64,000 nt of DNA from Sphingomonadales bacterium (GCA_038225475.1 JBBRRA010000004.1:168710-232709); one strand, 5' to 3'; shown: positions 4,782 to 21,394, counted from the stretch's first letter. Notes: a model not told the origin generated them from the sequence alone. Translations and numbers: made by a program.

Positions 4782-5462
4782 TCAGGTGAGATTGCGGCGG
4801 TTCGCCTCAAGTGCAGCTTCGGCGCGCGAAGCGATGCCCAGTTTGCGATAGATATTCTTGACGTGCGTCGCGACGGTCTGACTGCTGAGCGTCAGGACGG
4901 AGGCGGCCTCCGCCAGCGTCAGCCCGCGCCCGATCAACCGCAGCACTTCGGTCTCGCGCGCCGTCAGCGCCTCGGCAGCGGTGGGCCCGGCGCTCATGAA
5001 ACTCGCGTGCAGCCGGAATTGATCGAGAATACGCCGGGCGATCGCGGGGGAAATCGGTGCCTGCCCGTGATCAAGCCCGCGCAACCGGGTGACCAGCTCG
5101 GTGGCGTCACGGTCCTTGAGCAGATAGCCGTGTGCGCCCGCCGCCATCGCGCGGAGCAGATGGCCATCATCGTCGTAAACGGTCGTCACGACGATCTCGA
5201 CCTCGGGGTGAAAATCCCGGAGTTCGCGGATCAGGTCGATGCCCGATCCGTCGGGAAGCCCGAGATCGATCAGCGCGACCAGGCCAGCCGGGCAGGGCAT
5301 GTGGTCGGCAAGCCATTTACGCGCGGTGCGCACATCGACGGCGGTATCCACGACGATGTCGCCGAACGCTTCGCGTGCCACCTTGACCAGCCACGACCGC
5401 GTCTCGGCGATATCCTCGACGATAAACGCGCTGCGCGACGTCGGAGGAGCGATGCTGTCCAT
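4782..5462 (-). CDS. NarL/LuxR-family response regulator
   Basis: Receiver domain (IVEDI, LIDLGLPDGSG, GYLLKD) and C-terminal HTH (LTARETEVL...TVATHVKNIYRKLG); co-oriented and adjacent to the kinase. Confidence 0.95.
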   Translation of the reverse strand: MDSIAPPTSRSAFIVEDIAETRSWLVKVAREAFGDIVVDTAVDVRTARKWLADHMPCPAGLVALIDLGLPDGSGIDLIRELRDFHPEVEIVVTTVYDDDGHLLRAMAAGAHGYLLKDRDATELVTRLRGLDHGQAPISPAIARRILDQFRLHASFMSAGPTAAEALTARETEVLRLIGRGLTLAEAASVLTLSSQTVATHVKNIYRKLGIASRAEAALEANRRNLT

Positions 5463-5493
5463 ACTGCTATGTACCGCTGCCGCGCGGCGGGAA

Positions 5494-5511
5494 CATCCCC
5501 TGATCCGGGTA
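5494..5511. promoter_or_regulatory. palindromic operator copy 2, degenerate (CATCCCCTGATCCGGGTA)
   Basis: 15/18 match to copies 1 and 3; 31 nt upstream of the regulator start, in the divergent region shared with the S8 operon. Confidence 0.6.
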
Positions 5512-5690
5512 GCTCGCGAAAGTTTGACTCCGCTTTTTCCGGCTTCACGGGCGCGTCGGCTTGCAATCAGCGCCGATATATGTATAAGTTAATGTAATAA
5601 TGCATGCGAGCGTGGGTCGCCGCAGCAAATCTACGATAGTTGATTGCTCATAACGACCCAAATTTGACACTCATTTTTATGGGGGGTTCA

Positions 5691-7031
5691 ATGCTCACGC
5701 CCGTTATCGCAGTATTCCCATCTTCCGAGGCCATGCAGAATTCTGCAGCAGCCGATGTCACGACTCTGGATGTGCAGAATGTGCAAGTTCCCGATGGGCT
5801 GGTGCTCGATCCGAACTTTGCAGCGATCCCCCTCGGCGGAGGAACATTGGACAGCATGACGTCCGAGGCCATGACGCCTGCCGGATCGAGCCTGTTTGCT
5901 GTCCGGGGCTTCGTCGATGCCGATCCGGATGAGGGACCGCCGCAGACGATGGGGCAGGCGACGATCTATGCGGATCCGCAGATCGAGGTCTATCTGACCT
6001 GTGGCGGCACACCGCCGGTTGGCACAGCGCAGGACGTTGCCACCAACCTTGGCGTCGCGAGCCTTGGCGCGAAAGGCTTGACCGGTGCCAATGTCGGCAT
6101 CGTCATCATGGATACCGGGATCAACCTTGCCCATCTGACCAACGTCATGGGTTCGACGCCGAAACTCGATGTCGCCAACAGCTTTACGCCGCCCGGCTCA
6201 ACGACGGCGCCGGGGCGGTACAAGGTTCACCACGGGACAATGTGCGCATTCGATGCGCTGATCGCAGCGCCTTCGGCGACGCTGATCGACTATCCGATCC
6301 TTGCCGTTGCGTCGGCTGGTGGGTCGACGATCAGCGGCACGCTGAGCCTCGCGTTGCTTGCCTTTGCGCGCGTGCTCGGGTCGTGGGGCGTGGCGTTCGC
6401 GCCGGGAGGGCTCAGCCAATATAATGGGCTAGTGGTCAGCAACAGCTGGGGCATTTTCAATCCGAACTGGGATTTCCCGGTCAATCATCCCGGCCGTTAT
6501 TGCGACAACCCCAACCATCCGTTCAATTTGTTGCTCGGCGTGATGGCGCAGTCGGGAATCGATGTGGTGTTTGCCGCGGGCAATTGCGGTGCCGACTGCG
6601 CTGACTTGCGCTGTGCCGGCCGCACGACGGAGGCGATCATGGGCGCGAGCGCAATGCAGCCCGTGCTAACGCTCGCCGGCTGCGATAACAGCGGGGTGCG
6701 TGTCGGCTATTCATCGCAGGGGCCGTCGATCGCCAACATGTTCCAGGAAAAGCCCGACATCACCGCGTATACGCACTTTGCCGGATCGCGGGCGTTCGGC
6801 CCGAATTCGCCCGATTCGGGAACGTCGGCGGCATGTCCGGTGGCGGCGGGCTGCGTAGCGGCTTTGCGCACCAGCATTGCGCCGCGCGACGCTGCGTCGA
6901 CCCCGGCGGTCCTGTTCGACAAGCTGCGTTCCACAGCAGGACAGGGCGGTGGGCTGCCGGCGGGATGGAACGGCGACTACGGCTTCGGGATCATCGATCC
7001 CGGCGCTACGGCCACCGCTTTCGGGCTTTAG
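5691..7031 (+). CDS. S8 (subtilisin-like) serine peptidase with N-terminal prodomain, no signal peptide
   Basis: Catalytic motifs IMDTGI (Asp), HHGTMCA (His), FAAGNCG (oxyanion Asn), GTSAACP (Ser). ATG 5691 follows GGGGGG RBS; the track start at 5640 is probably too long. Confidence 0.92.
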   Translation: MLTPVIAVFPSSEAMQNSAAADVTTLDVQNVQVPDGLVLDPNFAAIPLGGGTLDSMTSEAMTPAGSSLFAVRGFVDADPDEGPPQTMGQATIYADPQIEVYLTCGGTPPVGTAQDVATNLGVASLGAKGLTGANVGIVIMDTGINLAHLTNVMGSTPKLDVANSFTPPGSTTAPGRYKVHHGTMCAFDALIAAPSATLIDYPILAVASAGGSTISGTLSLALLAFARVLGSWGVAFAPGGLSQYNGLVVSNSWGIFNPNWDFPVNHPGRYCDNPNHPFNLLLGVMAQSGIDVVFAAGNCGADCADLRCAGRTTEAIMGASAMQPVLTLAGCDNSGVRVGYSSQGPSIANMFQEKPDITAYTHFAGSRAFGPNSPDSGTSAACPVAAGCVAALRTSIAPRDAASTPAVLFDKLRSTAGQGGGLPAGWNGDYGFGIIDPGATATAFGL

Positions 7032-7039
7032 CCGTGTCG

Positions 7040-7300
7040 ATGCCGGTGGATCACGGCGCTGCACCGGCGGCTGCGCTGATGATCGTCAGGGGCGACACGG
7101 GGCCGCCGTCGCTGGCGGAAGCCGCCCGCCAACTCAACGCCACGACGGATGCGATCGATGCCACGTTCGGCGTAGTGCCGATCGATCCGGCAAAAGGGCT
7201 GTATTCGGTGCGGGTCGATGCGGCGCGGTTTGCCGGCCATTCCGATCCGCAGCAGGGGCCGTTTGCCGATCCCCCTATCGGACCGCTCAAGCCCGATTGA
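7040..7300 (+). CDS. small hypothetical protein (~86 aa) resembling the S8 prodomain
   Basis: Starts 8 nt after the protease stop. FGVVPID..GLYSVRVDA..FADPPIG parallels FAAIPLG..SLFAVRGFVDA..YADPQIE of the protease N-terminus. Confidence 0.7.
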   Translation: MPVDHGAAPAAALMIVRGDTGPPSLAEAARQLNATTDAIDATFGVVPIDPAKGLYSVRVDAARFAGHSDPQQGPFADPPIGPLKPD

Positions 7301-7343
7301 CGCGCCGACCGTGCGCGCCGTGCACGCCGATTAAGGACAAGCA

Positions 7344-9518
7344 ATGGGTTTGGACCTGATCTCCCGCCGATTTTCGCTGCACCGGGCCGCGTTCGACCCG
7401 GCAACGCTTGCGGTTGCCGAAACCCCCGGTGTCGGGGCGATAGCGACCGTGCAGCCATCGTTGATGATCGCCCAGCCGGTGTCGTCGATGATCCTGCGGT
7501 CATCGCGTGTCGCCACCGTCAATCCGGCGATCCTGCATTTCCTGCGCCCCGACCTGCTGCCGCCGATCGCCATCGACGGCGGCAGCGCGCGGGGCAGTTT
7601 TGCGCTGCCAACGCTGATTTCGCCGGTAGCGCAGCCCAACGATACGACCTTATTCGAAGCGCCCGCCGACCCCGGACAGCGGTTTTTCCTGGCGCGCTTT
7701 GCGCTGGCGGCAACCACCGGAACGGGCGGCCGGGCGAAATGGGTGGCATTGGTCACGACCGATCAGGGCGTCGCGTTGACCGTTCACCTTGCCGACGTGA
7801 CCGATCAAACGGCAGTCGCGGGCGCAACCCGGCTCGACGCAGACACGCGGTATATGATTACCGCGCAACTGAGCGGCCGCGTCGTCACCTGGGATTTGGC
7901 GGTGGCTGCAGCGACCGACGGTGCCGCGCTCAAACTCGAACTCGCACTCACCGATTTTGCCAGCCGCGACGGGCTGTATGCCGCGATGACCGATCCGGCG
8001 GCGCGTGCGGCACTGATCATCCGCCGTTCGGTACCGCTGGCGCTGCCGACGGCGGCGGATGCGACGCTCTATCATGCTGCACCGGTCTCGATCGATACGA
8101 GCATCGATTTTCTGTTCAACCGCGACCTCGACGCGAGCGTGTTCGCGGCTGCCGGCGCGGCACCGGCCGGTGCTGCAAAAGCGTGGAACGCCGTTACCGT
8201 GAACTGGCACGGCCGCCAGCACAGCTATTTCCAGTCGCGCGCGCAGGCCGATCAGGTGTTCTTCCTGCCCGACGCGTTCAAGGTCGTGCGGCAGGACAAG
8301 CCGCCGCACGCCCCGGCGCTGTCGGTGACGTCCGCCGGCGACACAGCCGACACGGTTGCGCTGACGCTGTCGTACCTTGCGCAACCGGTCTGGGATCCGC
8401 AGCGCATCGCCGATGCCGCAACCAAGCTGCAGCCGATGCTGTCGCTTGCCGCACCCCCAAGCTTTGCAGTGTTCGAGGCTGCGGACGCGAAGTTGGTGCT
8501 GACGTTGCCCGTGCCGGGGCAGGCGAGCGGCACCGCGCTTGCCGAACAGCATGATGCGATCATCGATATTGCGGCCGGGATTCGCGGTGCGATCACGCTC
8601 GACCTCGCGCACTTTCGCCAGATTTTCGATGCGCTGTTCGATCAGGTCAGCCCGATGCTGGCAGGCGAGGTGCGCATTGTCGTCGAAGGTAACGCCGTGG
8701 CGGTGCCTTTCATCGCGCGCGCCAACGATTTTGTCGGGGAGGTTTTGCACGCCGAGTCGACGATCGACGCCAAGCACGGCGCACTGGTCACGACGCTGAC
8801 CAATGCCATCGAAAGCCCGGTCCGCATCAACGGCCTCGATGGCAGCATCGCCAAGGGCGGCACGCCGATCCGGTCGAAAATCGGCACCGTGCTGCCGGCT
8901 TTACCGGTCACGCTCAGCCCGGCTCCGACCGGCGGAGCCGCGCCGGACACGCTTTCGGTCACGCTGACCACCGCGCAGGGTGACATTGTCACCGATGTGC
9001 TCGGGTCGCTGCTCGGCGGTTTGTTGGGCGGCGGGCATGTCGATGCCGGCGCTTCGGCAAAGAACGCTGCTGGCGGGCTGATCGCCGATACGCTCGATGC
9101 GACGTGCACCCCGTTGTTCGATTTCAGCAAGGTCGAGGTGCTCGCCGACCCAGCAGCCATCTGGCGTGCGGTCATGCAGAACCGGCAACTCGGCCCGGTA
9201 ACGCGCGTGGTGTCGCTGCGCACGATCGCCGCGATGCTGAAAGCCGCCGACCCCAGCAAGCCCGACGCTGTGCTGGCGATCCAGGTGGTGTTCGAATCGG
9301 GCCAGACGGCAACCTTCGATGCCTCGCTGACCCCCGATGCGGCAGGGTTCATCAATGCGACGATCAAGCTGTCGGTCCCGATGGAGGCGTATATCCTCGG
9401 GACCGCCGATACCGGTAGCTACCGGTACCGGATCGACCGTGTGACGCCCGGCGGCATGATCGCGGGACCGTGGGTCAGCGACAATCGCGACGTCCTGTTC
9501 GTGACCAGCGCGCGATGA
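7344..9518 (+). CDS. hypothetical protein P1 (724 aa), divergent member of the 5-paralog family
   Basis: AAGGA RBS; two degenerate core-like motifs (LFEAPADPGQRFFLA; YFQSRAQADQVFFLP); C-terminal YRYRIDRVTPGG...W...LFV repeat end. Confidence 0.8.
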   Translation: MGLDLISRRFSLHRAAFDPATLAVAETPGVGAIATVQPSLMIAQPVSSMILRSSRVATVNPAILHFLRPDLLPPIAIDGGSARGSFALPTLISPVAQPNDTTLFEAPADPGQRFFLARFALAATTGTGGRAKWVALVTTDQGVALTVHLADVTDQTAVAGATRLDADTRYMITAQLSGRVVTWDLAVAAATDGAALKLELALTDFASRDGLYAAMTDPAARAALIIRRSVPLALPTAADATLYHAAPVSIDTSIDFLFNRDLDASVFAAAGAAPAGAAKAWNAVTVNWHGRQHSYFQSRAQADQVFFLPDAFKVVRQDKPPHAPALSVTSAGDTADTVALTLSYLAQPVWDPQRIADAATKLQPMLSLAAPPSFAVFEAADAKLVLTLPVPGQASGTALAEQHDAIIDIAAGIRGAITLDLAHFRQIFDALFDQVSPMLAGEVRIVVEGNAVAVPFIARANDFVGEVLHAESTIDAKHGALVTTLTNAIESPVRINGLDGSIAKGGTPIRSKIGTVLPALPVTLSPAPTGGAAPDTLSVTLTTAQGDIVTDVLGSLLGGLLGGGHVDAGASAKNAAGGLIADTLDATCTPLFDFSKVEVLADPAAIWRAVMQNRQLGPVTRVVSLRTIAAMLKAADPSKPDAVLAIQVVFESGQTATFDASLTPDAAGFINATIKLSVPMEAYILGTADTGSYRYRIDRVTPGGMIAGPWVSDNRDVLFVTSAR

Positions 9519-11824
9519 TCGACCCCGCTGCCCTGCCTGATTTCGGCCGCGCGTCGGGTGCTGGCGAGGCGCTGGCGTATCCGCCGCTGGCTTCGGGTTC
9601 ATGGGCGGTGCTGCCCGATGCGTTAACGCTTGCCCGCGGTCCATCGGGAGCCCCGCTGCTGTCGCTCGTGCTCGAAAAGCGCGCCGACGATCTGGGCAGT
9701 GCCGGCCAGGGCGCGGTGCTCGATATTGCGCTGGCGGGCCACTATCCGCTCGATGCGGCGCTGGCGACCGCGCGCGCCGGCGATCCGGTCGCGACGGTGC
9801 GCGCGCTGCCGATCGACGCCGGGTTCGCGCGGCTGATTCAGGCTGGAATTGCACTCGATCTCGATCCCGCAACACGCGCGCCGGTCGCGCTTGGCTGGAC
9901 GGTGTCCGACGGCGTGCGCTGGACGCAGCGGATCGGCACGGCGGCGGGCACGCTGATCCGCGGCGCGATGACCGCAGGCGCATTTCCATTTACCGCGCGC
10001 GTCGAATTCACCGTGCTTGGTATTGCGCCCCGTTTTCCGGTGCGCCTCAGCTGCGATCCGCGCAGTCTTGTCACCGCCGCGCTTGCCGCGCACACCGACC
10101 GGCGCATCGATCTCGAAACGTTGTTTGCGTTTTGCACCAGTGCGGCGGGGCGCGCGCTGGTGCGCCTCGATGGCACGATCGACGACCGCGCGCTCGGGCA
10201 GGTGCTGGTCGACCGGCTGTTTGCGACGTGCGCCCGGCTGGTTCCGTCACCACAGGCCGGCGACCCGCCGTGGATCGAGCTCGGCATCCCCGCTGCCGGG
10301 CCGGTTGACTGGGACTTGCGCACGCCGACGGTGGTGCCGCGCGCGCATGCCTTGCAGGTCGATGTGGCATCGGCGTTGCACCATGACGATCTTGCAGCGC
10401 TCGTGCGCGATGTGACCGTGCCGCCGCTCGACCTCGGGCTGCACCGGTTGACGGTGTCGGCCAACCTGCCGTCGCCGCGGGTCGGCATCCCCGCAATCGG
10501 GACGCGGGTCGAAATCGCCGCCAATCCACCCGCGCGGCCGAGTGCGATTTCAAACACGCTGCTGTTCGAGCCGCCCGCCGACAGCGCGACCGCCGATGTG
10601 CATCTGGCCGCGGGCGAAATACTCGAATACCGCTTGGTACCCTTCACGATCATCGCCGCCGGCGCCGATGTGCTGCAGGCCGATGCCGCAGCGATCGTGC
10701 CAGCGACCGACTGGGTTCAGCTGCAGGCAAGCGATTTCGCGCTGCGCTTTTGCCATGTGACCGCGAGTACGCGGCTGCTTGCGCTTGCGACGATTGAGGG
10801 CGAGCTGCGCTATGCTTGGCAGGGGGCGACGCTGCACCAGCCGTTCGCGCTCGACGCAGCGACGCCCGGTCTCGCCGTCGCCATGCCGCAGGGCGCCGAT
10901 GCGACACTGGCGTTGACGGCGGTCGCGCTCGACGGTGCGCACCGCGTCGCGCTGGGGACGGCGCTCACCGACCGGATCGCGCTCGATCTCGCGAGTATCC
11001 CGGGCTATGGCCCGCACCGCGTCGTGGTCAGCGCGGCGTTACAGCCGGGCGATGCGCCGCTGCCTGTCGATTTGATTGGCGCGGACGGGGGCAACCCGAT
11101 GACCGTGACGCTTGCGCCGGGGTTTGCGCGAGCGAATTGGGGCTATGTCGCCGCGTCGCCGTTTCGCGCTGGCTACCGCTGGCGGATCGGTGCGGGCAGC
11201 TGGACCGAAGTCCGCGATCCGGCGCAACCGCTCGTGATCGGACGTGACATGTTTCCGCAAAAGCCGGTCCCCGCGCAGATCGACGGCGTGCATCTGTACC
11301 TCGATCCGGCGCAGCCCGGCACCGTACGGTATGTCCCGGCCGGGCCGGTTGCAGCGCACGACGGCGGCGGCCATCCGGCGGTCAGCGCGGTCCGCACCGC
11401 GACGGTGACCATGTTGCAGGTCGGTTCGACCTTCGCGATCACGACCGAACAGCGCGCCGCGATCACGCAGCAGCTGGCGATCGATGCCGCCGCGCTCCAG
11501 CCCGCACCGATCGCCATCACACATGTCGGGCTGCGGCTGACGGCCCCCGACGGCAACGAGCACGAGGTCGCGGGGTCATCGTCGTCGGGATTTCCGCCGT
11601 TCAACGCGGCGCTGTCGGCAGCGCTCGCGCCCGCCGACGGGGACCGCGCGATCAGCGCGATCAACGGTGGTGCCGGGCTGCTGTTCGTCGATTACGCCGT
11701 CGAGCTGCCCGCAGCTGCCGCCGCGACCTATCCCGACCGTGCCGCGGCACAAACGTTTCGCAGCGACATTGCGGGGTGGTTTCCAGCCGGTAGCGGAGCC
11801 GCGCATATCCAGATCGTTCCGTAA
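9515..11824 (+). CDS. hypothetical protein P2 (769 aa), core domain at both termini
   Basis: ATGA overlap with the P1 stop; N-terminal AYPPLASGSWAVLP..GAPLLSLV and C-terminal IDGVHLYLDPAQPGTVRYVP..GHPAVSAV. Confidence 0.8.
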   Translation: MIDPAALPDFGRASGAGEALAYPPLASGSWAVLPDALTLARGPSGAPLLSLVLEKRADDLGSAGQGAVLDIALAGHYPLDAALATARAGDPVATVRALPIDAGFARLIQAGIALDLDPATRAPVALGWTVSDGVRWTQRIGTAAGTLIRGAMTAGAFPFTARVEFTVLGIAPRFPVRLSCDPRSLVTAALAAHTDRRIDLETLFAFCTSAAGRALVRLDGTIDDRALGQVLVDRLFATCARLVPSPQAGDPPWIELGIPAAGPVDWDLRTPTVVPRAHALQVDVASALHHDDLAALVRDVTVPPLDLGLHRLTVSANLPSPRVGIPAIGTRVEIAANPPARPSAISNTLLFEPPADSATADVHLAAGEILEYRLVPFTIIAAGADVLQADAAAIVPATDWVQLQASDFALRFCHVTASTRLLALATIEGELRYAWQGATLHQPFALDAATPGLAVAMPQGADATLALTAVALDGAHRVALGTALTDRIALDLASIPGYGPHRVVVSAALQPGDAPLPVDLIGADGGNPMTVTLAPGFARANWGYVAASPFRAGYRWRIGAGSWTEVRDPAQPLVIGRDMFPQKPVPAQIDGVHLYLDPAQPGTVRYVPAGPVAAHDGGGHPAVSAVRTATVTMLQVGSTFAITTEQRAAITQQLAIDAAALQPAPIAITHVGLRLTAPDGNEHEVAGSSSSGFPPFNAALSAALAPADGDRAISAINGGAGLLFVDYAVELPAAAAATYPDRAAAQTFRSDIAGWFPAGSGAAHIQIVP

Positions 11825-11851
11825 CTCAAAGCTCGCCTGAAGGAGACCGAC

Positions 11852-14035
11852 GTGATCAATCTCGACAAGTCGCAGACGCTCGAAGGACTGATGGTCTATC
11901 CCGACGATACGACACCCAATATGTTCTTCGTCATTCCAGACCAGCCGCGCTTCCGGATCGACGAGGTCACCAAAAAGCCGGTGTTCACCTTCATCAAGTA
12001 CAAGCTGCCGATCGATCGTCCCGATGGATCGAAGGGCGGTGGCTTCGTCATCTTCGATGCAACGCTGACAGTCCCCGATGACAAGCGCAAAAAGATTTTA
12101 TCGACACTCGATGGTCAGCTGCAGGCGTCGGGATTTACCGGCGGCGACGGGCAGCCGCTCAAGGCGCAGCTTGGCCAGCTGACATTTTCGAGCGGCACCG
12201 CAAGCCTGGTGCTGCTCGACAGCGGCGGTGCGTTGGTCAGCAAGATCGAGAGCGTCGGCAAGCCGTCGCTCTACGGCTCGCTGATCTGCGCGTTTACCGC
12301 CGAGCTGTCGCCCGAAGGCGCGACGATCCTCGAGGCGGTGATGAAGAAATCCGGCGGCGTCGCGCAGATTGCCTATGACCTGCATTGTTCGGCGACGCTA
12401 CCGCCGATCACCGGGCGCGTCTGGTTTTACGCATCGAAATTCTACAGTTTCTACCAGTCGGTCGACAAAAGCGGCGGCAGTTGGGACAGCTCGAACAATA
12501 GCGAAACCGACACACAGCGCGAGAACTTCATCAATTCGCAAACCGGTGGCGTGTTCTTCGATTTCAGCCATTTGAATATTGCCGATCCCGAGGCGGCGCG
12601 CAAAACGCAGGATTCGATCACCAATTGGGGGTGGGCGCAGCTCGATACTGCGATCAAGACGGCGATCCTGCCCGATATCAAGGCTGCCGATGACCGGGGC
12701 GATCACGGGATGGACCATATCAAGAAGATGCAATCGACGTGGGAGTCGAGCAGCTTCGATCGCTATTTCTCTGAAAAGGAGGCGATCGACTTTCATATCA
12801 TCCCGCAAGGGACGTTGCCCAACATCACCGACATGGGCTTCAAATGGGAGGATTTCTTCGTCGAAGTCGACGCGAACGACCCGTTCTTCGCCCAAATCCG
12901 TTCATCGGTAGCAATCAATGCCGATTTCGCGAAGTTCAGAATCAATAGCGTCGATGTCCACTGCGAATATACCAAGGGCAACCCGGCGACGATTCAGGAT
13001 TTCCATTTCGTCAAAGCCGATGATATCGGCAAGTTCGATTCGAACACCGTCAACGGTGATATGGGCTATGCCTATTCCTACGAGGTTAATTACCTCGATC
13101 AGAGCAAGGCGTATTCGTCAGGATTGATCCCGACCAACAAGGGCCAGATTACCGTCAATGCCAATCAGCTCGGCATTTTATATGTCGACCTGACCGTGGG
13201 CAGCGTCGATTTCACCAAAACGCCGCAAGTGCAGGTCAGCATTCGTTATCCCGACGTCGATGCCAACGGTAACCCGATCAGTTCGCAGTTCACCTTTGCC
13301 AGCGACAAGAAATCCGACGCGCTGATCGCGGTCCTGCTCAAGCCGGTCGACAAGAAATACAAATATCAGACCAATTTCATCATGGCCGATGGCACGCAGA
13401 TCATCGGCGACTGGATCGAAAGCGACACGTCGCAGATTTATATCAACAGCCCCTTCGTGATGAAGACCTTCAGTTTCATCGCAGAAGCGGACTTCGCGAC
13501 CAGCGTCGATACGATCTTCCTCAAGATGAAATACGTCGATACGCCGAATAATATAGAGCAGGAGAGCGACTTCACCTTCAGCGCCAGCAATCTCAGCAAG
13601 GACTGGGCGATCCCGATCATCCGCAGCAACACCGGGCGGATCAGTTGTTCGGGCGTCATCATGTACAAAAATCACACGCAGGAAAACCTGACGGTGGTCG
13701 ATACCGACCGTGATCTGATTACCTTCGGGCCACCGAACCAGGCGATCGTCACCGTTGCGCCCGACACGACGCTGATCGATTTTACTCAGGTCAAACTGAT
13801 CAAGCTCGACCTTCATTATGCCGATGCGGAGAACAAGATCGATGTGAAGCACGAGTTCCTGCTGCGGGGCACCGGCGCGCCGCCGCAACCGTGGACGTTC
13901 TACGCGCGCGATCCGCAAAAGACTTCGTACAGCTATGTTGCAACGTTTTTCATGGCGACCACGCCGCCCAAGCAGGTGCAATTGGCACCAGCAACGAGCA
14001 GCGACACCGATCTCGTCCTCATGATGCCGTCGTAA
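11852..14035 (+). CDS. hypothetical protein P3 (727 aa): core plus four ~95-aa repeats
   Basis: AGGAG RBS, GTG start; VYPDD..FFVIP..PVFTFIKY..GGFVIFD..PSLYG..PQG..DPFF. Confidence 0.88.
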   Translation: MINLDKSQTLEGLMVYPDDTTPNMFFVIPDQPRFRIDEVTKKPVFTFIKYKLPIDRPDGSKGGGFVIFDATLTVPDDKRKKILSTLDGQLQASGFTGGDGQPLKAQLGQLTFSSGTASLVLLDSGGALVSKIESVGKPSLYGSLICAFTAELSPEGATILEAVMKKSGGVAQIAYDLHCSATLPPITGRVWFYASKFYSFYQSVDKSGGSWDSSNNSETDTQRENFINSQTGGVFFDFSHLNIADPEAARKTQDSITNWGWAQLDTAIKTAILPDIKAADDRGDHGMDHIKKMQSTWESSSFDRYFSEKEAIDFHIIPQGTLPNITDMGFKWEDFFVEVDANDPFFAQIRSSVAINADFAKFRINSVDVHCEYTKGNPATIQDFHFVKADDIGKFDSNTVNGDMGYAYSYEVNYLDQSKAYSSGLIPTNKGQITVNANQLGILYVDLTVGSVDFTKTPQVQVSIRYPDVDANGNPISSQFTFASDKKSDALIAVLLKPVDKKYKYQTNFIMADGTQIIGDWIESDTSQIYINSPFVMKTFSFIAEADFATSVDTIFLKMKYVDTPNNIEQESDFTFSASNLSKDWAIPIIRSNTGRISCSGVIMYKNHTQENLTVVDTDRDLITFGPPNQAIVTVAPDTTLIDFTQVKLIKLDLHYADAENKIDVKHEFLLRGTGAPPQPWTFYARDPQKTSYSYVATFFMATTPPKQVQLAPATSSDTDLVLMMPS

Positions 14036-14047
14036 CGGCCGAGCCCG

Positions 14048-16339
14048 ATGCTGTACCTCAACCCGCCCTATTTCCTGATCGACGGGGTTTCGATCTTCCC
14101 GGATCACGCCGATCCGCTGCAGTTCTACTATCTGCCAATGATGCCGCATCTGACCGTCGACGGCGACGGCGCGGCGGCGATGCCGCGGTTGCAGTTGATC
14201 GAATATCGCGGCGCGGCGGGAAGCGGCGGGTTCCTCAACTTCGATGTCAATCTGGGGCTTGCGCCCGACAAGCTGGCGAGCGTCGCGCAAGACCTCAAGC
14301 GTCAGGCACAGCTGAGCGACAACCCTCGGCTATCGCCGGTGACGTTCGTCGACGGGTCGGTCAAGTTGATGCTGCTCGGGGCCGAAAGTCCGCCGCCGGC
14401 GGGAGCGACGCCGGGCCCGCCGCCGCCCGCCAATGCGGCGACCGCGGCGCCGGGGGGCCCGCGGTTCGTTGTCAAGATCCAGAATGCCGTCAAACCGGCG
14501 CTGTTCGGCGACAATCAGGCGACGTTTTCGGTCCAGCTCGATCAATATGGCGCGACCATCCTGCGGCAGGCGCTAGCGGGCGAGCTGGCTCCGGTGGCGG
14601 TGGTCTATTCGCTCGATTTCATCGCGCTGCGTCCGGCATTCAACGTGCATCTCAGCATCGACTGGGACCGTGTCCACACCTATCTCGACGATCAGTTCAG
14701 CGGCGGGTTCCTGTTCGTTTCGGTCGATATCGACAAGGCGATCGACAAGCTGATCGAAGACCGAGCCATCGTCATCGAAATCGACAGCTTCATTCCCGAT
14801 GGCGACACCAGCAAGTCGACCAGCGGCGACCGCGACCGCGCGGTGGGCCAAGTCTATGATATGATCAAGGAAACTTTCTTTACACCAAGCATGCCGCCCC
14901 AAGGTAGCAACAACACCGGTGGCATGATCGAAACCGCGCGGACGATTGCGCAGCTGGTGCATAACGGCGGAATGGCGCTGTGTTCGAAGAAGAGCGTCGA
15001 CCTAACGCAGGTTGATAAAAAGACGCTGAACGTTAACATCCGCGAGCGCACCGCGGTACAGCGCACAATCTATCCGCAGGGTCATCTCAGCGGGCTGTTC
15101 GACACGTTGCGACGCCCCGGCGTGACGCTCGATCGCTTCGTTACCGAGGTCGATCTCGACAATCCGTATTTTCAACGGCGCACACTGACGGTAGCCACCA
15201 AGGCCGACTTCACCGCCGATGCGATCGCCTCGATCGACGTCAATCTAATGTACAATGGCATGATCCGGTCGGTCACGCTGACGACCGCGGCACCGAGCGC
15301 CGCGGTCGACTGGAGCAGCCTGCTCAAAAACGGCCAGATGGTTCGCGACGTGGCGTTCAGCTATACCGTTAATTTCAGCGGCAGTGTCGATAGCGCACAG
15401 CGCCCGGTGCAGCTGAGCGCCGCCCCCGGCACCACGATCGGCGACAGCATCGACATCGAACCGCGCAGCGATCTGTACGCGATCACGACGATCCCGATCC
15501 GCGCCGACAACCTGCCCTTCGACCGCTATCCCAATGTCGAGGTTGAATGCCGCTATCTCGATCCGGTGAGCAAGCTGCAGCAGCAGGCGAGCGCGCTTCT
15601 GACTGCGCAGAATAACGAGACGAGCTGGCAGATTTTCATGCGTGACCGCACGCAGCGCAGTTTTGAATATCAGCTGACCTTTGCGCTGGCGACCGGCGGC
15701 ACGCGCATTGTGCCATGGACGCAAACCGACGAGGGCAAGGTCGATATCAGCGACCCGATGCCGAGCAAGATCAACCTGACAATCCTGCCCGCGGTCGATT
15801 GGGCGAGCGTCAGCCAGATCATCCTGTTCGTGGCCTATCCCGGCAAGTCGAACCCGAGCGCCCATCAGAATTTCGTGATCAACGCGCAGACTGCAACCGT
15901 GCCGCTGTTCATCGCCGAGCGCCCCGATGGTGCGCCGCCGACAGTTTATTACGAAGTTCGCATCCTCGGCGCGCACGGCCATGTCTGGACGGTGCCGGGG
16001 TCGGTGACGACCGATAGCATCCTGACGATCCAGGAAGGCATGCTGGGGCATCAGATCATCGGCGTCGGCTCCGAGCCGATCGATTTCGCCGCGAAGCATG
16101 TGCTGGGGATCGATGTCCAGCTTCGCTATGTCGACGCCAAGCACGCGATCAACGCTACGACCAGTTTTACGCTGCAAAGTCAGAACGATAGCCAGTCGTT
16201 TGCGTTCGACTATGTCGATCCGGCGATCCGCGCCGAATATTCGGCGGTGATCCGGCTCGACAATGGCCAGAACCGCACGGTCGACTGGACGCCGGTAACC
16301 GGTAGCGTCGTCACCGTGCCGCTGCACCAACTCGACTGA
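14048..16339 (+). CDS. hypothetical protein P4 (763 aa): core plus four repeats
   Basis: IFPDHADPLQFYYLP..PRLQLIEY..GGFLNFD..PALFGDN..PQG..NPYF; 12 nt after P3. Confidence 0.88.
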   Translation: MLYLNPPYFLIDGVSIFPDHADPLQFYYLPMMPHLTVDGDGAAAMPRLQLIEYRGAAGSGGFLNFDVNLGLAPDKLASVAQDLKRQAQLSDNPRLSPVTFVDGSVKLMLLGAESPPPAGATPGPPPPANAATAAPGGPRFVVKIQNAVKPALFGDNQATFSVQLDQYGATILRQALAGELAPVAVVYSLDFIALRPAFNVHLSIDWDRVHTYLDDQFSGGFLFVSVDIDKAIDKLIEDRAIVIEIDSFIPDGDTSKSTSGDRDRAVGQVYDMIKETFFTPSMPPQGSNNTGGMIETARTIAQLVHNGGMALCSKKSVDLTQVDKKTLNVNIRERTAVQRTIYPQGHLSGLFDTLRRPGVTLDRFVTEVDLDNPYFQRRTLTVATKADFTADAIASIDVNLMYNGMIRSVTLTTAAPSAAVDWSSLLKNGQMVRDVAFSYTVNFSGSVDSAQRPVQLSAAPGTTIGDSIDIEPRSDLYAITTIPIRADNLPFDRYPNVEVECRYLDPVSKLQQQASALLTAQNNETSWQIFMRDRTQRSFEYQLTFALATGGTRIVPWTQTDEGKVDISDPMPSKINLTILPAVDWASVSQIILFVAYPGKSNPSAHQNFVINAQTATVPLFIAERPDGAPPTVYYEVRILGAHGHVWTVPGSVTTDSILTIQEGMLGHQIIGVGSEPIDFAAKHVLGIDVQLRYVDAKHAINATTSFTLQSQNDSQSFAFDYVDPAIRAEYSAVIRLDNGQNRTVDWTPVTGSVVTVPLHQLD

Positions 16340-16352
16340 AGGGAACCGGCCC

Positions 16353-18779
16353 ATGTTGCTGTTGTCGACCCACAGCTTCGTTGTCGAAGGTGTCACGGTA
16401 TTTCCCGATCATGCCGACCCGAACTTTTTCTGGTATCTGCCGGCACCGGTCGCGCTGGCACAGATGCCCGGCAGCGAGGAGCCACAGTTCCTGCTGATCG
16501 AATATGCCCCCGATGTTGCCGCAACCGGGGTCAAGGGCGTCGGCTTCCTCAACGTCACGACGTGGCTTCGCGTGCCGGACGATGTGCTGCAGGAAATCAC
16601 CGGGCAGATCCGTGCGCGCTTTCCCACCGCCGACCATCCGCAGCTTGGCCCGGTGCCGTTCGACGAGGGTAGCGTGCAGATCGTCGCGCTGGATCTGCAG
16701 GGCGGCGGCGGCACTGCCAACACGGCTCCGCCCGGCGCGTTCGAGGCGGTCGAACATATCCTCGGCGCGTCCTCGCCCGAGCTGTTCGGCGACAACAATG
16801 CGCTGTTCGCGCTGACGCTGAGCGAGGAGGGGGCAACGATCCTCGAGGCGGCGTTCGACAACGGGATGGCCCCCGTTGGCGCCATCTATAATATGAAATT
16901 CACCGGCGTCCGCCCGGCGATCGACGTCAAGATTACCGCGGATCTCAAACGGTGCTACGACAGTTTCAGCGTCGGAATCGAAGCCAAAGTATATTGGGTG
17001 TCGGCCGGGATCGACGCGACTTTCGAAAAGCTGCGGCAGGACGGCGCGATCAAGATTCAAGTCGTCAACCTTGCCGGCGACGCCGAATCGCTGCAGGCCG
17101 AACAAACCGCGCTCAACCTGTTCAAAGACCAGATCCTGTCGCAATGGTTCACGCCGAGCCTGTCGCCGACGACCGCTGCTGCCGCCGATGCCGGGATACC
17201 GCCGCTGGGGGGACAGACCGCCGCGACGACTCCGCCCGCGACCGCGCACCCGGTCACCACGCCGCCGGGCGGTGGTACAATCCCGCCGGTGAGCCATCCG
17301 CCGATGGGACAGGTGCCCGGTGTTCATCCGCCTGCCGTACCCGGCATGGGTCAGATGGGCACTCCGGTAACGGCGCATCCCCCCGGCGCGTCCGTGACGC
17401 CGCCCGCGCCCGCGGCGCTGGCTGCACATCCGACGCCTGCGGCAGGCGCGCCTGCGAGTGGCGCTGCCGGACCGGGCGCTTCCGGACCGGGCGGCGCGGC
17501 AGCTGCTGCGGGGGGCGCGGTCGGCGGCGCGCTGGGCGGCGCAACCGGGGCGAGCGTCGGCGCTGCGGCAGCGTCGGCTGCAGCAGCTGCGGCGGGTGCC
17601 GGGCACCCGGCGACGGCACCCGGCGCTCCCGCGCAGGGTGCGGCCGCAGGGCTTGCCGCCCTGCCGGGCGCTGCCGCGCAAGCTGCATCGGCGGCATCGC
17701 CGTTCGGCGTCGCGTTCAAGCTCAAGATTGTTCATCAGGACGAGCAAAAGACCGTCGAATATGAATATAACCGGATGGATGCGGTGCAGCGGGTGTACGC
17801 GCCGCAGGGCTATTTCGGGTTGATGCTCGCCAAGGCCGACCGAGCCAAACATTTCCTCAAAGTCGATGGGGTCGATCCGTTCTTTCACAAATTCACCGTC
17901 AACGTCGCGCCGCCGCGCGATTTTGCCAGTATCGGGCTGCAGACTGCGCATGTCGGGATCGATTTCGGCGATCCTGCCCGACCCGCCGATACCAAGCATG
18001 GCGATTTCGTTTTCGATGCGCAGCATGCCACCCCGCAGGATTGGTCGGTGTTTCAGGGCGAGGTGGCAAGCACCGAATATCGCTACACCGCCGACTATGG
18101 TTTCGATCCCGATGCGGGGTGGGACGGCGAGCACGACCGCTACGAACTGCCCGAAGTCACCACCGAAAATCGCCAGCTGGTGCTCGACCCGCGCGACTTC
18201 CTCGGCTTCCTGCAGGTGACTCTGCAGCCCGGCCACATCGATGCCGATCTCGTCGACCGCATCGACGTTGCGCTGCACTATGGTGCGCAAAACGGGTGGA
18301 CGAGCAGCGCCACCTTGTCCTTTCACCCCGGCAGTCCGGCGCAAAGCTGGAAAGTCCGGATCAGCGACCGCCGCGACAATCCGGTAACCGGCAAGTCGGC
18401 GTTCGAATACCGCTATGTCATCACTCGCATCCTGAAAACCGGGCAATCGCTTGTAACCGCCGAAACGACGACGACGGCGCGCGCGCTGATCGTCGATGAT
18501 CCGTTTCTATCGGCGCTCAATGTGACCGTGCAGCCGGTTTTCGAGGCGCAGAAGACCAAGCTCGCGGTCGTCGAGCTGCACTATGACGACGCCGCGGGCT
18601 ACCGTTTCCAAAAGACGCTGCAGCTTGCCGCCGGGGCGCCCGCGCAGACCGTGCGCATTCCGCAGATCGACCCGGCTGTCGGGCAATTCAGCTATCGGAC
18701 CACGCTGATCGATGCTGCGAACACCCGGGTACAGTCGGCGTTCGTCACCACCGCCGACACGCTGGTCCTCGTCGGTTGA
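16353..18779 (+). CDS. hypothetical protein P5 (808 aa): core with ~177-aa P/A/G-rich insert plus three repeats
   Basis: VFPDHADPNFFWYLP..PQFLLIEY..GFLNVT..PELFGDN..PQG..DPFF; 13 nt after P4. Confidence 0.88.
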   Translation: MLLLSTHSFVVEGVTVFPDHADPNFFWYLPAPVALAQMPGSEEPQFLLIEYAPDVAATGVKGVGFLNVTTWLRVPDDVLQEITGQIRARFPTADHPQLGPVPFDEGSVQIVALDLQGGGGTANTAPPGAFEAVEHILGASSPELFGDNNALFALTLSEEGATILEAAFDNGMAPVGAIYNMKFTGVRPAIDVKITADLKRCYDSFSVGIEAKVYWVSAGIDATFEKLRQDGAIKIQVVNLAGDAESLQAEQTALNLFKDQILSQWFTPSLSPTTAAAADAGIPPLGGQTAATTPPATAHPVTTPPGGGTIPPVSHPPMGQVPGVHPPAVPGMGQMGTPVTAHPPGASVTPPAPAALAAHPTPAAGAPASGAAGPGASGPGGAAAAAGGAVGGALGGATGASVGAAAASAAAAAAGAGHPATAPGAPAQGAAAGLAALPGAAAQAASAASPFGVAFKLKIVHQDEQKTVEYEYNRMDAVQRVYAPQGYFGLMLAKADRAKHFLKVDGVDPFFHKFTVNVAPPRDFASIGLQTAHVGIDFGDPARPADTKHGDFVFDAQHATPQDWSVFQGEVASTEYRYTADYGFDPDAGWDGEHDRYELPEVTTENRQLVLDPRDFLGFLQVTLQPGHIDADLVDRIDVALHYGAQNGWTSSATLSFHPGSPAQSWKVRISDRRDNPVTGKSAFEYRYVITRILKTGQSLVTAETTTTARALIVDDPFLSALNVTVQPVFEAQKTKLAVVELHYDDAAGYRFQKTLQLAAGAPAQTVRIPQIDPAVGQFSYRTTLIDAANTRVQSAFVTTADTLVLVG

Positions 18780-19651
18780 GCGTCAGCCAGGGCGCGGTCG
18801 TGGCCGCAGCCCGGCGGCTTGGCGGCGGCGGGGACCTGACTGCGTTCGAGGCCGCGGTGGCAGGGCTCGATTTGACTGCCGCAAGCCGCCTGACGCGCGA
18901 CGGCTGCCCCGTCGAATTCGCGTTTTCATCGAGCGACGCGCATTTTCGCACAACGGTCGATCCGCTGCTGGGGGTGGCGGATTGCCACCACCGGCTGCGG
19001 CGGCTTGGAACGATGGCGGGCGCTGCCGCTGCCGAATGGTTGACGCGGTGCGAGCGGGCGCAGCACGGTGCCGCGCTGCGTTGGGGGGCGTGGCTCGGCC
19101 TGCGAAGCCTCGATGCCGGGCTTGGTGCGAAACTCTATGCGGAAATTCCGCGCGGTGCCGTGATGGCCGCGCCGCGCGCGCCGGCGGGCGGGCGGTTGAC
19201 GATGACCGGGTGCGATTTAAGCAACGGCATCGAAGAATATTATTACGCGCTGCCAGAAGTTTCCGAAACGCAACTGATGTTGGTCGCGAACGCGGCGGGG
19301 GTGGCGCGGGGCGATGCGCTGCTCGATATGCTGCAGCAGTGCTGGTCGCTGCCGATCACCACCGCGCTGGCGTGGCAGACGCTTGGGGTCAGCCTGCGCT
19401 GTCGGGGCGGCGTGCCGGTGCCGGGTCTCGCCGTACATTTCAACGCCGCAGCACTCCCCGATGGCAACGCCTATGTGCGCCGCGCCATGCTCGGACAAGT
19501 ATCGCCAGGCTACCGCGCGCTATGGGGCGACGACGCTGCCGATAGTCCCGATCACGGCCTCGTCAGCGTCGCAGCATCGTCCGATGCAACCGAAATCCGC
19601 TGTGGCGTCAGCGCGAGTGCGGTCGTCGCCGCTTGCCGTGTCGCCGCCTGA
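18776..19651 (+). CDS. hypothetical protein, possible ABBA/DMATS-like aromatic prenyltransferase fold
   Basis: TTGA overlap with the P5 stop. SRLTRDGCPVEFAFS resembles the DMATS SxxTxDxxPxExS motif; KLYAE resembles the KxY motif. The ORF is likely real; the function is weakly supported. Confidence 0.55.
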   Translation: MSVSQGAVVAAARRLGGGGDLTAFEAAVAGLDLTAASRLTRDGCPVEFAFSSSDAHFRTTVDPLLGVADCHHRLRRLGTMAGAAAAEWLTRCERAQHGAALRWGAWLGLRSLDAGLGAKLYAEIPRGAVMAAPRAPAGGRLTMTGCDLSNGIEEYYYALPEVSETQLMLVANAAGVARGDALLDMLQQCWSLPITTALAWQTLGVSLRCRGGVPVPGLAVHFNAAALPDGNAYVRRAMLGQVSPGYRALWGDDAADSPDHGLVSVAASSDATEIRCGVSASAVVAACRVAA

Positions 19652-20516
19652 CGCCGCCATCGCGTTCCTTGTCGCGCAGCAGGACCGCGACGGTGCCTGG
19701 CGCGATTTCGCGCTGACGCCAGGCGTGTCCGATGCGTGGACGACGGCCTATGTCGGGCTGGCGCTGGCGGCAGCGGCGCAGGCGCAGCTGGTCGTGCCAC
19801 CACACGCGATTGCGGCGGCGTGCGGTTTTCTGCATGCCGCGCGTCGGCCCGGGGCAGGGTGGGGGTATAATCTGCGGTGTCCGGCCGATGCCGATAGCAC
19901 CGCGCTTGCGTGCCTGCTGCTGGCAGCCGCGGGGCAACGCCTGCTGCCGGGCGACTATGCCGCGCTGGCGCGGTTCCAGTGCAACGATGGTGGCTTTGCG
20001 ACCTATCGTTTTGCCGGGGCCGACCATCGCTGGTGCCGACCGCATGCCGAGGTCACTGCGACCGCGTTGCGGGCGCTGCGCGCGCTGCTGCCGCCGGGGC
20101 ATGAACGGATGCGCCGGGGCGGTGCGTGGCTCGACAGGGCAGGGTCGGTGCCGCGGCCTTATTGGTGGGCGACGCGCGCCTATCTCGACCTTGAGCTGCG
20201 GCGGCTGGGGCGCACAGTGTCACCTGCCGGTGATCTGGACGTCGGCGGCTGTTTCGAATTGGCGTTGCGGCTGGAGGCAGCAGCGATGTCGGGCTGTCCG
20301 ACAGCGGCGCTGCACGACGCGCTGACCGAACGGCAACTGCCCGATGGCAGTTGGCCGGTGGTGCCGATGCTGCGCGTGCCCGATCCGCATTGCGAACACG
20401 CTGCCGAGCGCTTGTTCGGCGATCAGCGCGCCAGCTTCACGACCGCGACGGCGCTGTCGGCGCTCGCCGCGCTCAGGCGGTCACGCCGAGGCTGGCGAGC
20501 AGCGGCGGATCGATAA
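19638..20516 (+). CDS. prenyltransferase/squalene-cyclase repeat protein, single-domain class II terpene cyclase-like (292 aa)
   Basis: QW-type repeats FLVAQQDRDGAW, FLHAARRPGAGW, LARFQCNDGGF, LTERQLPDGSW; DADSTA in place of DxDD. GTG 19638 overlaps the upstream stop; the track start at 19314 looks like shadow sequence. Confidence 0.8.
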   Translation: MSPPDAAIAFLVAQQDRDGAWRDFALTPGVSDAWTTAYVGLALAAAAQAQLVVPPHAIAAACGFLHAARRPGAGWGYNLRCPADADSTALACLLLAAAGQRLLPGDYAALARFQCNDGGFATYRFAGADHRWCRPHAEVTATALRALRALLPPGHERMRRGGAWLDRAGSVPRPYWWATRAYLDLELRRLGRTVSPAGDLDVGGCFELALRLEAAAMSGCPTAALHDALTERQLPDGSWPVVPMLRVPDPHCEHAAERLFGDQRASFTTATALSALAALRRSRRGWRAAADR

Positions 20517-21297
20517 CGCCGTCGCCCAGCCCATGCTGGCGGCGATATTGCAAGATCGCTGCCATCGACCGCTGCCCCAGCACACCGTCTGCCGCGCCGA
20601 TCTGATCGAAGCCCGCGGCGCGCAGCGCTTTTTGCACCGCGATAATTGTCGACAGCGGTGGCAGCACCGGCGGCGGCGGTGCCGACAGCACGCGGCGTAC
20701 CTTGTCGAGCCATGCCTTGCGCTCCGGAAGCCCGGTGACGCCGCCGTTGATACGCCGGGTGGCGGCAGTGAAATCACCGGTGTCGGCGATGGTGTTCAGC
20801 CCCTTCCAAGACCAGAAGGCGCAGGCCGCGACCAATGCCGTGTCGGGCGCTGCGGCGAGTTCCGGCTGGCCGACAAGGTCGATGGCGGCGACCCTGCCAA
20901 CCTGGGCATAGCCGTCGCGGCCGGTCAGCTGGAGCAGCCCGCGCCCGCGATACCGAAAGCCGTCGCCGCTGCCCGCTGGCTGATTGCCCATGCGGCCCCC
21001 ATAGACCATGTCGCCCAGTTTTTCGGGGTTGCCCGCGCACTCGGCGGCAGCGCCAAGGCTTGGAAAGCGGCGCGGCCAGACGGCGCACAGCCGCTGCGCG
21101 CTATAATTTAGATTTTCCTCGACGCGCGTCAGCCCGTCGGTTTCATGGCCGATCTGTGCGAGCAGGAAGTGCAGCCGGTCGCCATCGGCGCCGATTTCGA
21201 AGCGCGCGAAAACCTCCTCCTGCTGCGCCGCGATCGCCGTCAGCAGGGGCGGCATCCCATGCGGAAATAATTCACGCAAAACCGCTGGCGTCAGCAT
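20473..21297 (-). CDS. glycoside hydrolase family 19 (lysozyme/chitinase) with C-terminal peptidoglycan-binding domain
   Basis: LAQIGHETDGL, YRGRGLLQLTGRDGY, TRRINGG; C-terminal VQKALRAAGF..ADGVLG..AILQYRRQHGL; no signal peptide. Confidence 0.9.
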   Translation of the reverse strand: MLTPAVLRELFPHGMPPLLTAIAAQQEEVFARFEIGADGDRLHFLLAQIGHETDGLTRVEENLNYSAQRLCAVWPRRFPSLGAAAECAGNPEKLGDMVYGGRMGNQPAGSGDGFRYRGRGLLQLTGRDGYAQVGRVAAIDLVGQPELAAAPDTALVAACAFWSWKGLNTIADTGDFTAATRRINGGVTGLPERKAWLDKVRRVLSAPPPPVLPPLSTIIAVQKALRAAGFDQIGAADGVLGQRSMAAILQYRRQHGLGDGVIDPPLLASLGVTA

Positions 21298-21394
21298 GGT
21301 GCACACCCTTCCGGCCGAAGTTCGAAAGCTCCGCGCGCGGCACTCCCGGACGCGAACACCTTAGCATCAAATGCCCTGAAAGTCCGCCGTCCGA

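Follow-up and report, generated by a model that had tools for sequence, protein, structure and literature searches.

A five-gene cassette of undescribed proteins in bacteria and archaea, with an adjoining predicted aromatic prenyltransferase and terpene cyclase

In a stretch of 64,000 nucleotides (nt) from a Sphingomonadales bacterium (GCA_038225475.1 JBBRRA010000004.1:168710-232709; the whole stretch is called the window), five consecutive genes for large proteins, P1 to P5, form a cassette that recurs in distantly related bacteria and in archaea. The conserved core consists of these five genes, P1-P2-P3-P4-P5. An earlier note on this DNA had taken as the unit a nine-gene operon, which includes a subtilisin-like S8 protease gene and a small open reading frame (ORF) upstream and two enzyme genes, g8 and g9, downstream; this wider unit does not hold, as the S8 gene and the small ORF are found in three loci only. 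While the families of g8 and g9 are known, the P1-P5 core and its combination with them are undescribed, as the earlier note had proposed. The gene order of five unannotated families is thus preserved in lineages as distant as Methanosarcinales, Lysobacter, Paenibacillus, Mycobacterium and cyanobacteria.

Conservation and architecture of the five core proteins

A scan of one genome per species (185,579 species genomes) provided approximately 171 confirmed loci, 80 of which were fetched, and the locus counts given throughout cover 81 related loci. All five P families are present in 62 of the 81, and in each of these complete loci (62/62) the genes occupy one strand in the order P1<P2<P3<P4<P5, with each P protein of the window matching its own positional ortholog in distant genomes. 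A gene neighbourhood conserved across phyla, for which the earlier note had proposed to look, does therefore exist for P1-P5, and strict co-occurrence in a fixed order fits with the suggested hetero-oligomeric assembly of co-encoded P proteins. The hosts belong to the Pseudomonadota, Acidobacteriota, Actinomycetota, Bacteroidota, Cyanobacteriota and Bacillota, furthermore to the Vulcanimicrobiota, Chloroflexota, Verrucomicrobiota, Planctomycetota and Nitrospirota, and to Methanosarcinales archaea, a range of 11 named bacterial phyla plus archaea that includes diderms as well as monoderms; Lysobacter enzymogenes, Larkinella arboricola and Paenibacillus are culturable hosts. The cassette is a rare, horizontally spread module. 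Within the order of the window's bacterium it is present in one of 201 genomes, the window's own, and its GC content at third codon positions (GC3) amounts to 0.74-0.79 compared to 0.82-0.86 in core genes.

P3, P4 and P5 are, as judged by BLASTP (E 5e-16 for P3/P4 and 1e-38 for P4/P5), true paralogs with a common N-terminal core of approximately 375 amino acids (aa), in the following the N-domain, in agreement with the shared core described earlier. The claim that all five proteins are paralogs stands for these three and in part for P2, which has one module of ~180 aa in common with them: its residues 588-728 align with the first ~180 aa of the N-domain in the P4 profile (hhalign probability 96.7%, E 3.3e-10), and in many other loci this C-terminal module is a gene of its own (P2b). 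P1 displays only marginal similarity, its kinship being unproven, with an hhalign probability of 33% for its C-terminal 40 aa against P4 and of 20% for its centre (aa 294-438) against the C-terminal module of P2. A profile of the N-domain retrieved 2,539 clusters at 50% identity among 1.84 billion representative proteins, and the domain is always N-terminal.

An AlphaFold2 model of full-length P4 (40 homologs; predicted local distance difference test score, pLDDT, 77) predicts an N-terminal alpha/beta domain followed by four beta-sandwich domains of ~95 aa; offset BLAST matches between P3 and P4 reveal the same repeats, which had been noted behind the core before. Modelled alone with 126 sequences, the P4 N-domain reaches a pLDDT of 85 and a predicted template modelling score of 0.75. 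Residues 285-327 of P4 form a low-confidence linker in the AlphaFold2 models, and a Pro/Ala/Gly-rich insert in P5 occupies exactly the same place; its length varies across loci, from which P5 proteins of 745 to 1150 aa result. P3, with orthologs in distant phyla that are 41-44% identical, has a GC content of 55% compared to ~66% around and is rich in Lys, Asn, Ser and Thr. A separate acquisition of P3 was considered and rejected, since its GC3 of 0.76 equals that of its neighbours; the drop in GC is consequently due to amino-acid composition and not to foreign codon usage.

Homologs of P4 number more than 471, every one of which is annotated as 'hypothetical', and none of the P1-P5 proteins has a match in Pfam, NCBIfam, PADLOC or the PDB. 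Equally, sequence profiles of the N-domain, P1 and P2 found no match in the PDB, and a Foldseek search of the PDB with the model of the P4 N-domain gave nothing significant (best E 0.01, TM-score 0.14), nor did a search of BFVD. The model of full-length P4 retrieved generic MG/Ig/FN3 arrays only, with E-values down to 4e-9 and TM-scores of 0.06-0.09. Kinship with alpha2-macroglobulin or complement was accordingly rejected, as the matches to C5, alpha2-macroglobulin and TEP1 reflect generic beta-sandwich arrays (TM <0.1). The MACPF/CDC fold combines a bent sheet of four strands with two clusters of helices able to refold into hairpins. This fold as well as the gasdermin fold were rejected for the N-domain, neither being among the top 50 Foldseek matches listed, the N-domain profile having no match in the PDB and the hydrophobic periodicity being in accord with the predicted helices. 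Profile and structure searches, the latter with the P4 model, have thus led to no characterised family, and no paper describing the cassette was found in the literature searched, which excluded subscription literature.

Some loci deviate from the five-gene composition. Two extra genes lie between P2 and P3 in two Methanosarcinales loci (L032 and L033, ~5200-7800), one for a P3-like protein of 327 aa and one for a protein of 469 aa resembling the C-terminus of P2, which brings the structural components to seven there. In Mycobacterium sp. (L071, 2-6456, minus strand) a second, inverted partial set, composed of a 774-aa P4-like protein and neighbours of 660 and 710 aa, stands head-to-head with the main cassette, which has no clear P1 there. 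Duplication of P5 into a short (~745 aa) and a long (~970 aa) form is seen in L051, L052, L066 and L085 as well as in L073, and in the first three of these a caspase-like gene is located between the two copies.

Accompanying enzymes and gene neighbourhood

Directly after P5, many loci carry a transferase gene followed by a cyclase gene, in this order and often with overlapping stop and start codons; in a hidden Markov model (HMM) scan of all ORFs, 43 loci proved to have the transferase and 27 the cyclase, the latter never without the former. The earlier note had recognised two lipid-modifying enzymes, and the pair has been upheld with a more specific identity, a tryptophan-type ABBA prenyltransferase and an MstE-like class II cyclase. 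ORFs of 560-613 aa that had been considered as fused transferase-cyclase genes were discarded, being two separate genes in overlapping frames, with no two-domain ORF in the HMM scan.

The product of g8 is assigned as a DMATS/CymD-like aromatic prenyltransferase. Its family profile (A3) matches CymD (6OS3, E 2.3e-4), 4YZJ (E 1.5e-3) and, aligned over profile positions 18-305 of 326, the DMATS-type 6ZRZ (E 0.011) in the PDB. Six of 35 family members match Pfam Trp_DMAT (best 2e-5) and no other family, the g8 protein of the window alone remaining below threshold. Residues K119, Y121, E154 and Y156 are invariant and E47, R58 and Y246 near-invariant, a pattern which by eye would fit the basic and Tyr residues that line the diphosphate site in an ABBA barrel.

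The product of g9 is likewise assigned by homology as an MstE-like single-domain class II terpene cyclase. In a phmmer search of the PDB, it matched 8PAJ (E 1.2e-15), 8PAK (E 5.8e-12) and MstE (6SBB, E 5.8e-11), with the sequence PADADSTA aligned and identical in g9 and 8PAJ, while the profile search gave a best E of 2.7e-21 and reached squalene-hopene cyclase (SHC, 1GSZ) at E 3e-5. For MstE, the catalytic motif has been reported to be DxD rather than DxDD (PMC12414744). The g9 family aligns with a second family of ~295 aa located behind P5 in other phyla, with D-x-D-(D/S)-T-A as common invariant motif; D84, D86 and T88 are conserved without exception in 18 family members, the other branch having DADDTA and the branch of the window DADSTA. 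The start of g9 is ambiguous, either GTG at 19638 (14-nt overlap with g8) or an in-frame ATG at 19584 (MQPKSAV..., 310 aa, 68-nt overlap), which would bring the N-terminus nearer to the length of orthologs.

A search for tryptophan columns in each P family that track presence of the transferase led to W211 of P3. Among the transferase-positive loci 33 of 35 have this residue, while 10 of the 12 transferase-negative loci lack it. Replacement by Cys has occurred in a Bacteroidota clade and separately in an Actinomycetota clade, both with 100% branch support in the P4 tree and both lacking the transferase, and in cyanobacteria the loop has been rebuilt; three of the four independent contrasts go in the same direction and none in the opposite. 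The equivalent loop holds hydrophobic residues in P4 (SGGFLF) and P5 (VYWV). W211 as prenylation site is a good lead and not a result. Column 143 of P1 was dismissed as a second tryptophan site, as it is inside a beta-strand, has Val in the window and shows an unconvincing pattern.

The protease is an optional module drawn from three interchangeable, unrelated families, S8, caspase-like C14 and trypsin-like. That the S8 protein of the window is a protease devoid of a signal peptide is borne out by its Pfam match, the catalytic residues D141, H181 and S379 and a hydropathy scan, and orthologs upstream of P1 have been detected solely in L012 and L056 (E ~1e-150), which fall in different cassette clades. 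One or two C14 proteins after P5 are encoded in 12 loci and trypsin-like proteases in 4; C14 and transferase are found together in L027, L051, L052 and L066, in most cases with the cyclase. None of the cassette proteases has a sensor domain, and all are simple proteins of 300-450 aa. Because S8 is restricted to three loci with C14 or trypsin-like proteases elsewhere, the view of a dedicated maturation protease that belongs to the core has had to be abandoned. As to the 86-aa ORF, it is a genuine gene, conserved in L012 and L056 with 46-47% identity, present in three loci in total and only alongside S8; its earlier interpretation as free prodomain is not sustained, as its resemblance to the N-terminus of the protease does not reach significance (BLAST E 0.15; hhalign E 0.02, probability 2%).

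The nine ORFs of the window (Table 1) are intact, all on the plus strand, and span 5691-20516, with intergenic distances of 8, 43, -4, 27, 12, 13, -4 and -14 nt in order; the three overlapping junctions (ATGA at 9515, TTGA at 18776 and 14 nt at 19638) and the gaps of at most 43 nt had been read correctly from the beginning, as had the absence of signal peptides, a hydropathy scan detecting no signal-peptide-like or transmembrane-strength hydrophobic segment in any of the nine proteins. A scan of 5300-7400 for promoters and terminators yielded no candidate.

Table 1. Features of the cassette and of two adjoining genes in the window
Feature	Position (nt)	Strand	Description
S8 subtilase	5691..7031	+	446 aa; accessory protease module; Pfam Peptidase_S8, E 1.9e-14
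86-aa ORF	7040..7300	+	travels with the S8 gene
P1	7344..9518	+	724 aa; core component 1; conserved motif YYQD..FYYLPD.FK
P2	9515..11824	+	769 aa; core component 2
P2 C-terminal part, aa 588-728	11276-11698	+	partial copy of the P3-5 N-domain
P3	11852..14035	+	727 aa; paralog 1, N-domain and beta-sandwich repeats
P3 Trp211 codon	12482..12484	+	loop KSGGSW after a long beta-hairpin; candidate prenylation site
P4	14048..16339	+	763 aa; paralog 2, most conserved component
P4 N-domain, aa 1-375	14048-15172	+	followed by four predicted beta-sandwich domains, aa 376-763
P5	16353..18779	+	808 aa; paralog 3
P5 insert, aa 271-459	17163-17729	+	~190 aa, Pro/Ala/Gly-rich, interrupts the N-domain
g8	18776..19651	+	291 aa; DMATS/ABBA-type aromatic (tryptophan-type) prenyltransferase homolog
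g9	19638..20516	+	292 aa from GTG; MstE-like monodomain class II terpene cyclase (by homology)
g9 DADSTA motif, aa 84-89	19887-19904	+	catalytic-type motif
GH19/PG_binding_1 gene	20473-21306	-
836-aa protein gene	21395-23905	-

On one side, the cassette is flanked by a divergent pair of a HisKA_3 histidine kinase and a LuxR-type response regulator; on the other side follow a GH19 protein with PG_binding_1, which lacks a signal peptide, an 836-aa patatin-like protein, a secreted ricin-type lectin, a PEP-CTERM protein and, thereafter, rodA, pbp2 and mreDCB, by which the region is recognised as chromosomal. The two-component system, GH19 and lectin of the earlier description are confirmed, the 'patatin' by motifs seen by eye only (GGGIRA, SGGSYIG, DGG), with no Pfam match at E 0.001. 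With its long hydrophobic central region, the 836-aa protein may be a divergent membrane-embedded phospholipase.

In the relatives, the flanks are composed of ordinary unrelated genes, with Peptidase_S8 as the only recurrent family (4 of 150 flanking ORFs). GH19, patatin and lectin were discarded as conserved partners, each Pfam family occurring in one to few of the 150, and the co-occurrence of GH19 and patatin with the cassette across phyla, which the earlier note had proposed to check, is not conserved. PADLOC recognised none of the nine proteins of the window and single scattered matches only in the 150 flanking ORFs; a defence-island context was likewise rejected, as the flanks are not enriched in defence genes. 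Peptidoglycan hydrolases without signal peptide lie beside some cassettes without being conserved, SLT and M15_4 in L005 (780-3102, minus strand) and GH19 near the cassettes of the window, L010, L052 and L073; these adjoining hydrolases could be relevant to a model of release by lysis.

Possible mechanism and alternative readings

The preferred reading, possible but short of probable, is that the cassette encodes a membrane-tethered hetero-oligomer in which P3 carries a (cyclised) prenyl anchor on a tryptophan and which is matured by a protease. P1-P5, made in the cytoplasm, would assemble as one hetero-oligomer on the inner face of the membrane; action on the cytoplasmic side is favoured because signal peptides and transmembrane segments are absent and the cassette occurs in diderms, monoderms and archaea. 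A short precursor peptide is missing from the cassette; the P proteins are the candidate substrates of the enzymes. The g8 enzyme would transfer an isoprenyl chain onto W211 in the exposed loop of P3, whereupon the aspartate in the DADSTA motif of g9 would protonate the terminal double bond and the chain, its presumed substrate, would be converted into a polycyclic anchor resembling a hopanoid or sterol. This anchor and the hydrophobic loops of P4 and P5 may jointly dock the N-domains on the bilayer, whereas the oligomer itself would be built by the C-terminal beta-sandwich domains and by the ~180-aa sub-module that is N-terminal in P3-5, C-terminal in P2 and possibly central in P1. The S8 protease with its 86-aa partner, or elsewhere a caspase-like or trypsin-like protease, would then cleave one or more components, most likely in the disordered linker of the N-domain (aa 285-327 in P4, aa 271-459 in P5), and cleavage would turn the complex from latent to active. 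As likeliest output, ranked first, a change in membrane integrity of the producing cell can be envisaged, either permeabilisation or remodelling.

The most specific form of this proposal, namely that a long isoprenyl chain on the loop tryptophan of P3 is folded by a dedicated cyclase and tethers a five-protein, protease-gated membrane-attack or remodelling machine of a new fold, is doubtful. If true, a full-size prokaryotic protein would for the first time be seen to bear a polycyclic isoprenoid anchor, for which the cholesterol on Hedgehog provides a functional comparison.

A number of observations weigh against a lipid-anchored, protease-gated oligomer. Approximately one quarter of the complete loci are without the transferase and two thirds without a protease, which makes both dispensable for the core. 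The correlation with W211 amounts to 3-4 independent events (sign test p ~0.25), and with so few events the test cannot reach significance; in addition, L011 has the tryptophan without a transferase, and L014 and L049 a transferase without the tryptophan. For the N-domain, the fold search gave no match to gasdermin, MACPF or CDC proteins, and from their hydrophobic periodicity its helices are ordinarily alpha-type amphipathic, segments that refold into hairpins not being indicated. Beta-sandwich arrays are more typical of extracellular proteins. A phage-defence role is without contextual support because of the missing PADLOC match and flank enrichment.

In an unlikely alternative, P1-P5 might be a multi-component toxin or adhesin directed against other cells and set free by lysis or through some other export route, whereby the arrays, four Ig/FN3/MG-like domains per paralog, would bind target surfaces and the terpenoid anchor would aid insertion into the target membrane as in lipidated toxins. 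Predatory or antagonistic soil bacteria such as Lysobacter enzymogenes, L. antibioticus, Myxococcaceae and Paenibacillus are among the hosts, Lipase_3 is found near three loci and one Tle1-like protein has been observed, and the peptidoglycan hydrolases GH19 (window, L010, L052, L073) and SLT with M15 (L005) as well as the ricin-type lectin and the patatin-like gene adjoining the window cassette would suit such a role. These hydrolase, lipase and lectin neighbours are, however, not conserved, none of the families exceeding one to few of the 150 flanking ORFs, and one and the same cassette in diderms, monoderms and archaea, with no signal peptides and no secretion genes, is difficult to reconcile with export. 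Furthermore, prenyl diphosphate donors reside in the cytoplasm, and hence the first membrane met by a lipidated protein would be that of its producer.

Improbable to the same degree is a role as membrane scaffold or remodelling coat that does not kill, for example as a lattice, an organiser of microdomains or the shell of an intracellular compartment; it would be tethered by the anchor, with the proteases as ordinary maturation enzymes. The patchy distribution, one in 201 genomes of the same order and ~171 loci in 185,579 species genomes, would be unusual for a housekeeping scaffold, three recruited protease families are more typical of gated effectors, and the cassette has no linked genes for cargo or metabolism. 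On the other hand, five components in a fixed stoichiometric order, none an enzyme or NTPase, flanks without defence-island context, N-domain helices of ordinary amphipathic character and the resemblance of a polycyclic anchor to hopanoids, which organise bacterial membranes, are all in line with a coat.

The remaining alternative, a pathway to a small terpenylated peptide or meroterpenoid of the ribosomally synthesised and post-translationally modified peptide (RiPP) type, performed by g8, g9 and the protease with P1-P5 as neighbours, carrier or immunity proteins, is very unlikely, since, even though the known relatives of the enzyme pair, NctPC and ChrPC, act on short ribosomal peptides (PMC13290415), the substrate of MstE is a small meroterpenoid (PMC12414744) and the 86-aa ORF adjoins the S8 protease, this ORF occurs only with S8 in three loci and no small ORF is conserved across loci, g8 and g9 directly follow P5 in many phyla with often overlapping codons, P1-P5 are constant and the enzymes variable, and the Trp-to-Cys switch in P3 tracks transferase presence.

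Comparison with known systems

Bacterial gasdermins are cytoplasmic, beta-rich proteins without signal peptide that carry a palmitoyl on Cys and have caspase-, subtilisin- or trypsin-like proteases as neighbours. The cassette resembles these systems in its putative lipid-modification logic, in the three protease families present in some loci and in the disordered linker as a possible cleavage site. It differs by the missing fold match, proteins three times larger, five components and the lack of a protease in most loci, and, as lipid, a prenyl group on Trp would take the place of the palmitoyl on Cys.

Interchangeable proteases also connect the cassette to the protease-gated death effectors Pepco, EACC1, MBL and alpha/beta-hydrolase, for which proteolysis has been proposed as activation (PMC12642450). 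These are small single effectors with sensor-fused proteases, whereas the cassette combines plain proteases of 300-450 aa with a set of five proteins and has neither a PADLOC match nor a defence-island context.

The complement membrane attack complex (C5b with C6-C9) can be regarded as an analogy only: several co-encoded paralogs have a common core and beta-sandwich domains, P1 and P2 could serve as platform and P5 is the duplicated paralog in some loci, while, unlike in the membrane attack complex, the P proteins have no MACPF fold. Whatever the output, be it a pore, a coat or a toxin, the cassette represents a new class of prokaryotic multi-protein machine.

As to the enzymes, g9 is predicted to be, like MstE (6SBB) and the 361-365-aa proteins 8PAJ and 8PAK, a class II cyclase with a single beta-domain in a group of ~300-365 aa, and shares with them an acidic motif, DxD in MstE (PMC12414744) and PADADSTA in 8PAJ. 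MstE performs ring closure on a free meroterpenoid, whereas members of the g9 family occur linked to a prenyltransferase and to five large proteins.

The closest parallel for the pair is provided by NctPC and ChrPC, which, as summarised in PMC13290415 (citing Hubrich et al. 2024), attach a C10-C20 chain to Trp of a ribosomal peptide and cyclise it via an MstE-like domain. The cassette similarly joins a predicted aromatic, Trp-directed prenyltransferase to an MstE-like monodomain class II cyclase; the activities reside, however, on separate genes, and the candidate substrates are proteins of ~750 aa. The hallmark of RiPP pathways of this type, a short precursor that combines a leader with a core Trp, was not found, no small ORF being conserved across the loci. 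The link of g8 and g9 to P1-P5 suggests that cyclic-terpene lipidation, known so far for short ribosomal peptides only, might take place also on large proteins, which, if true, would constitute a new kind of membrane anchor.

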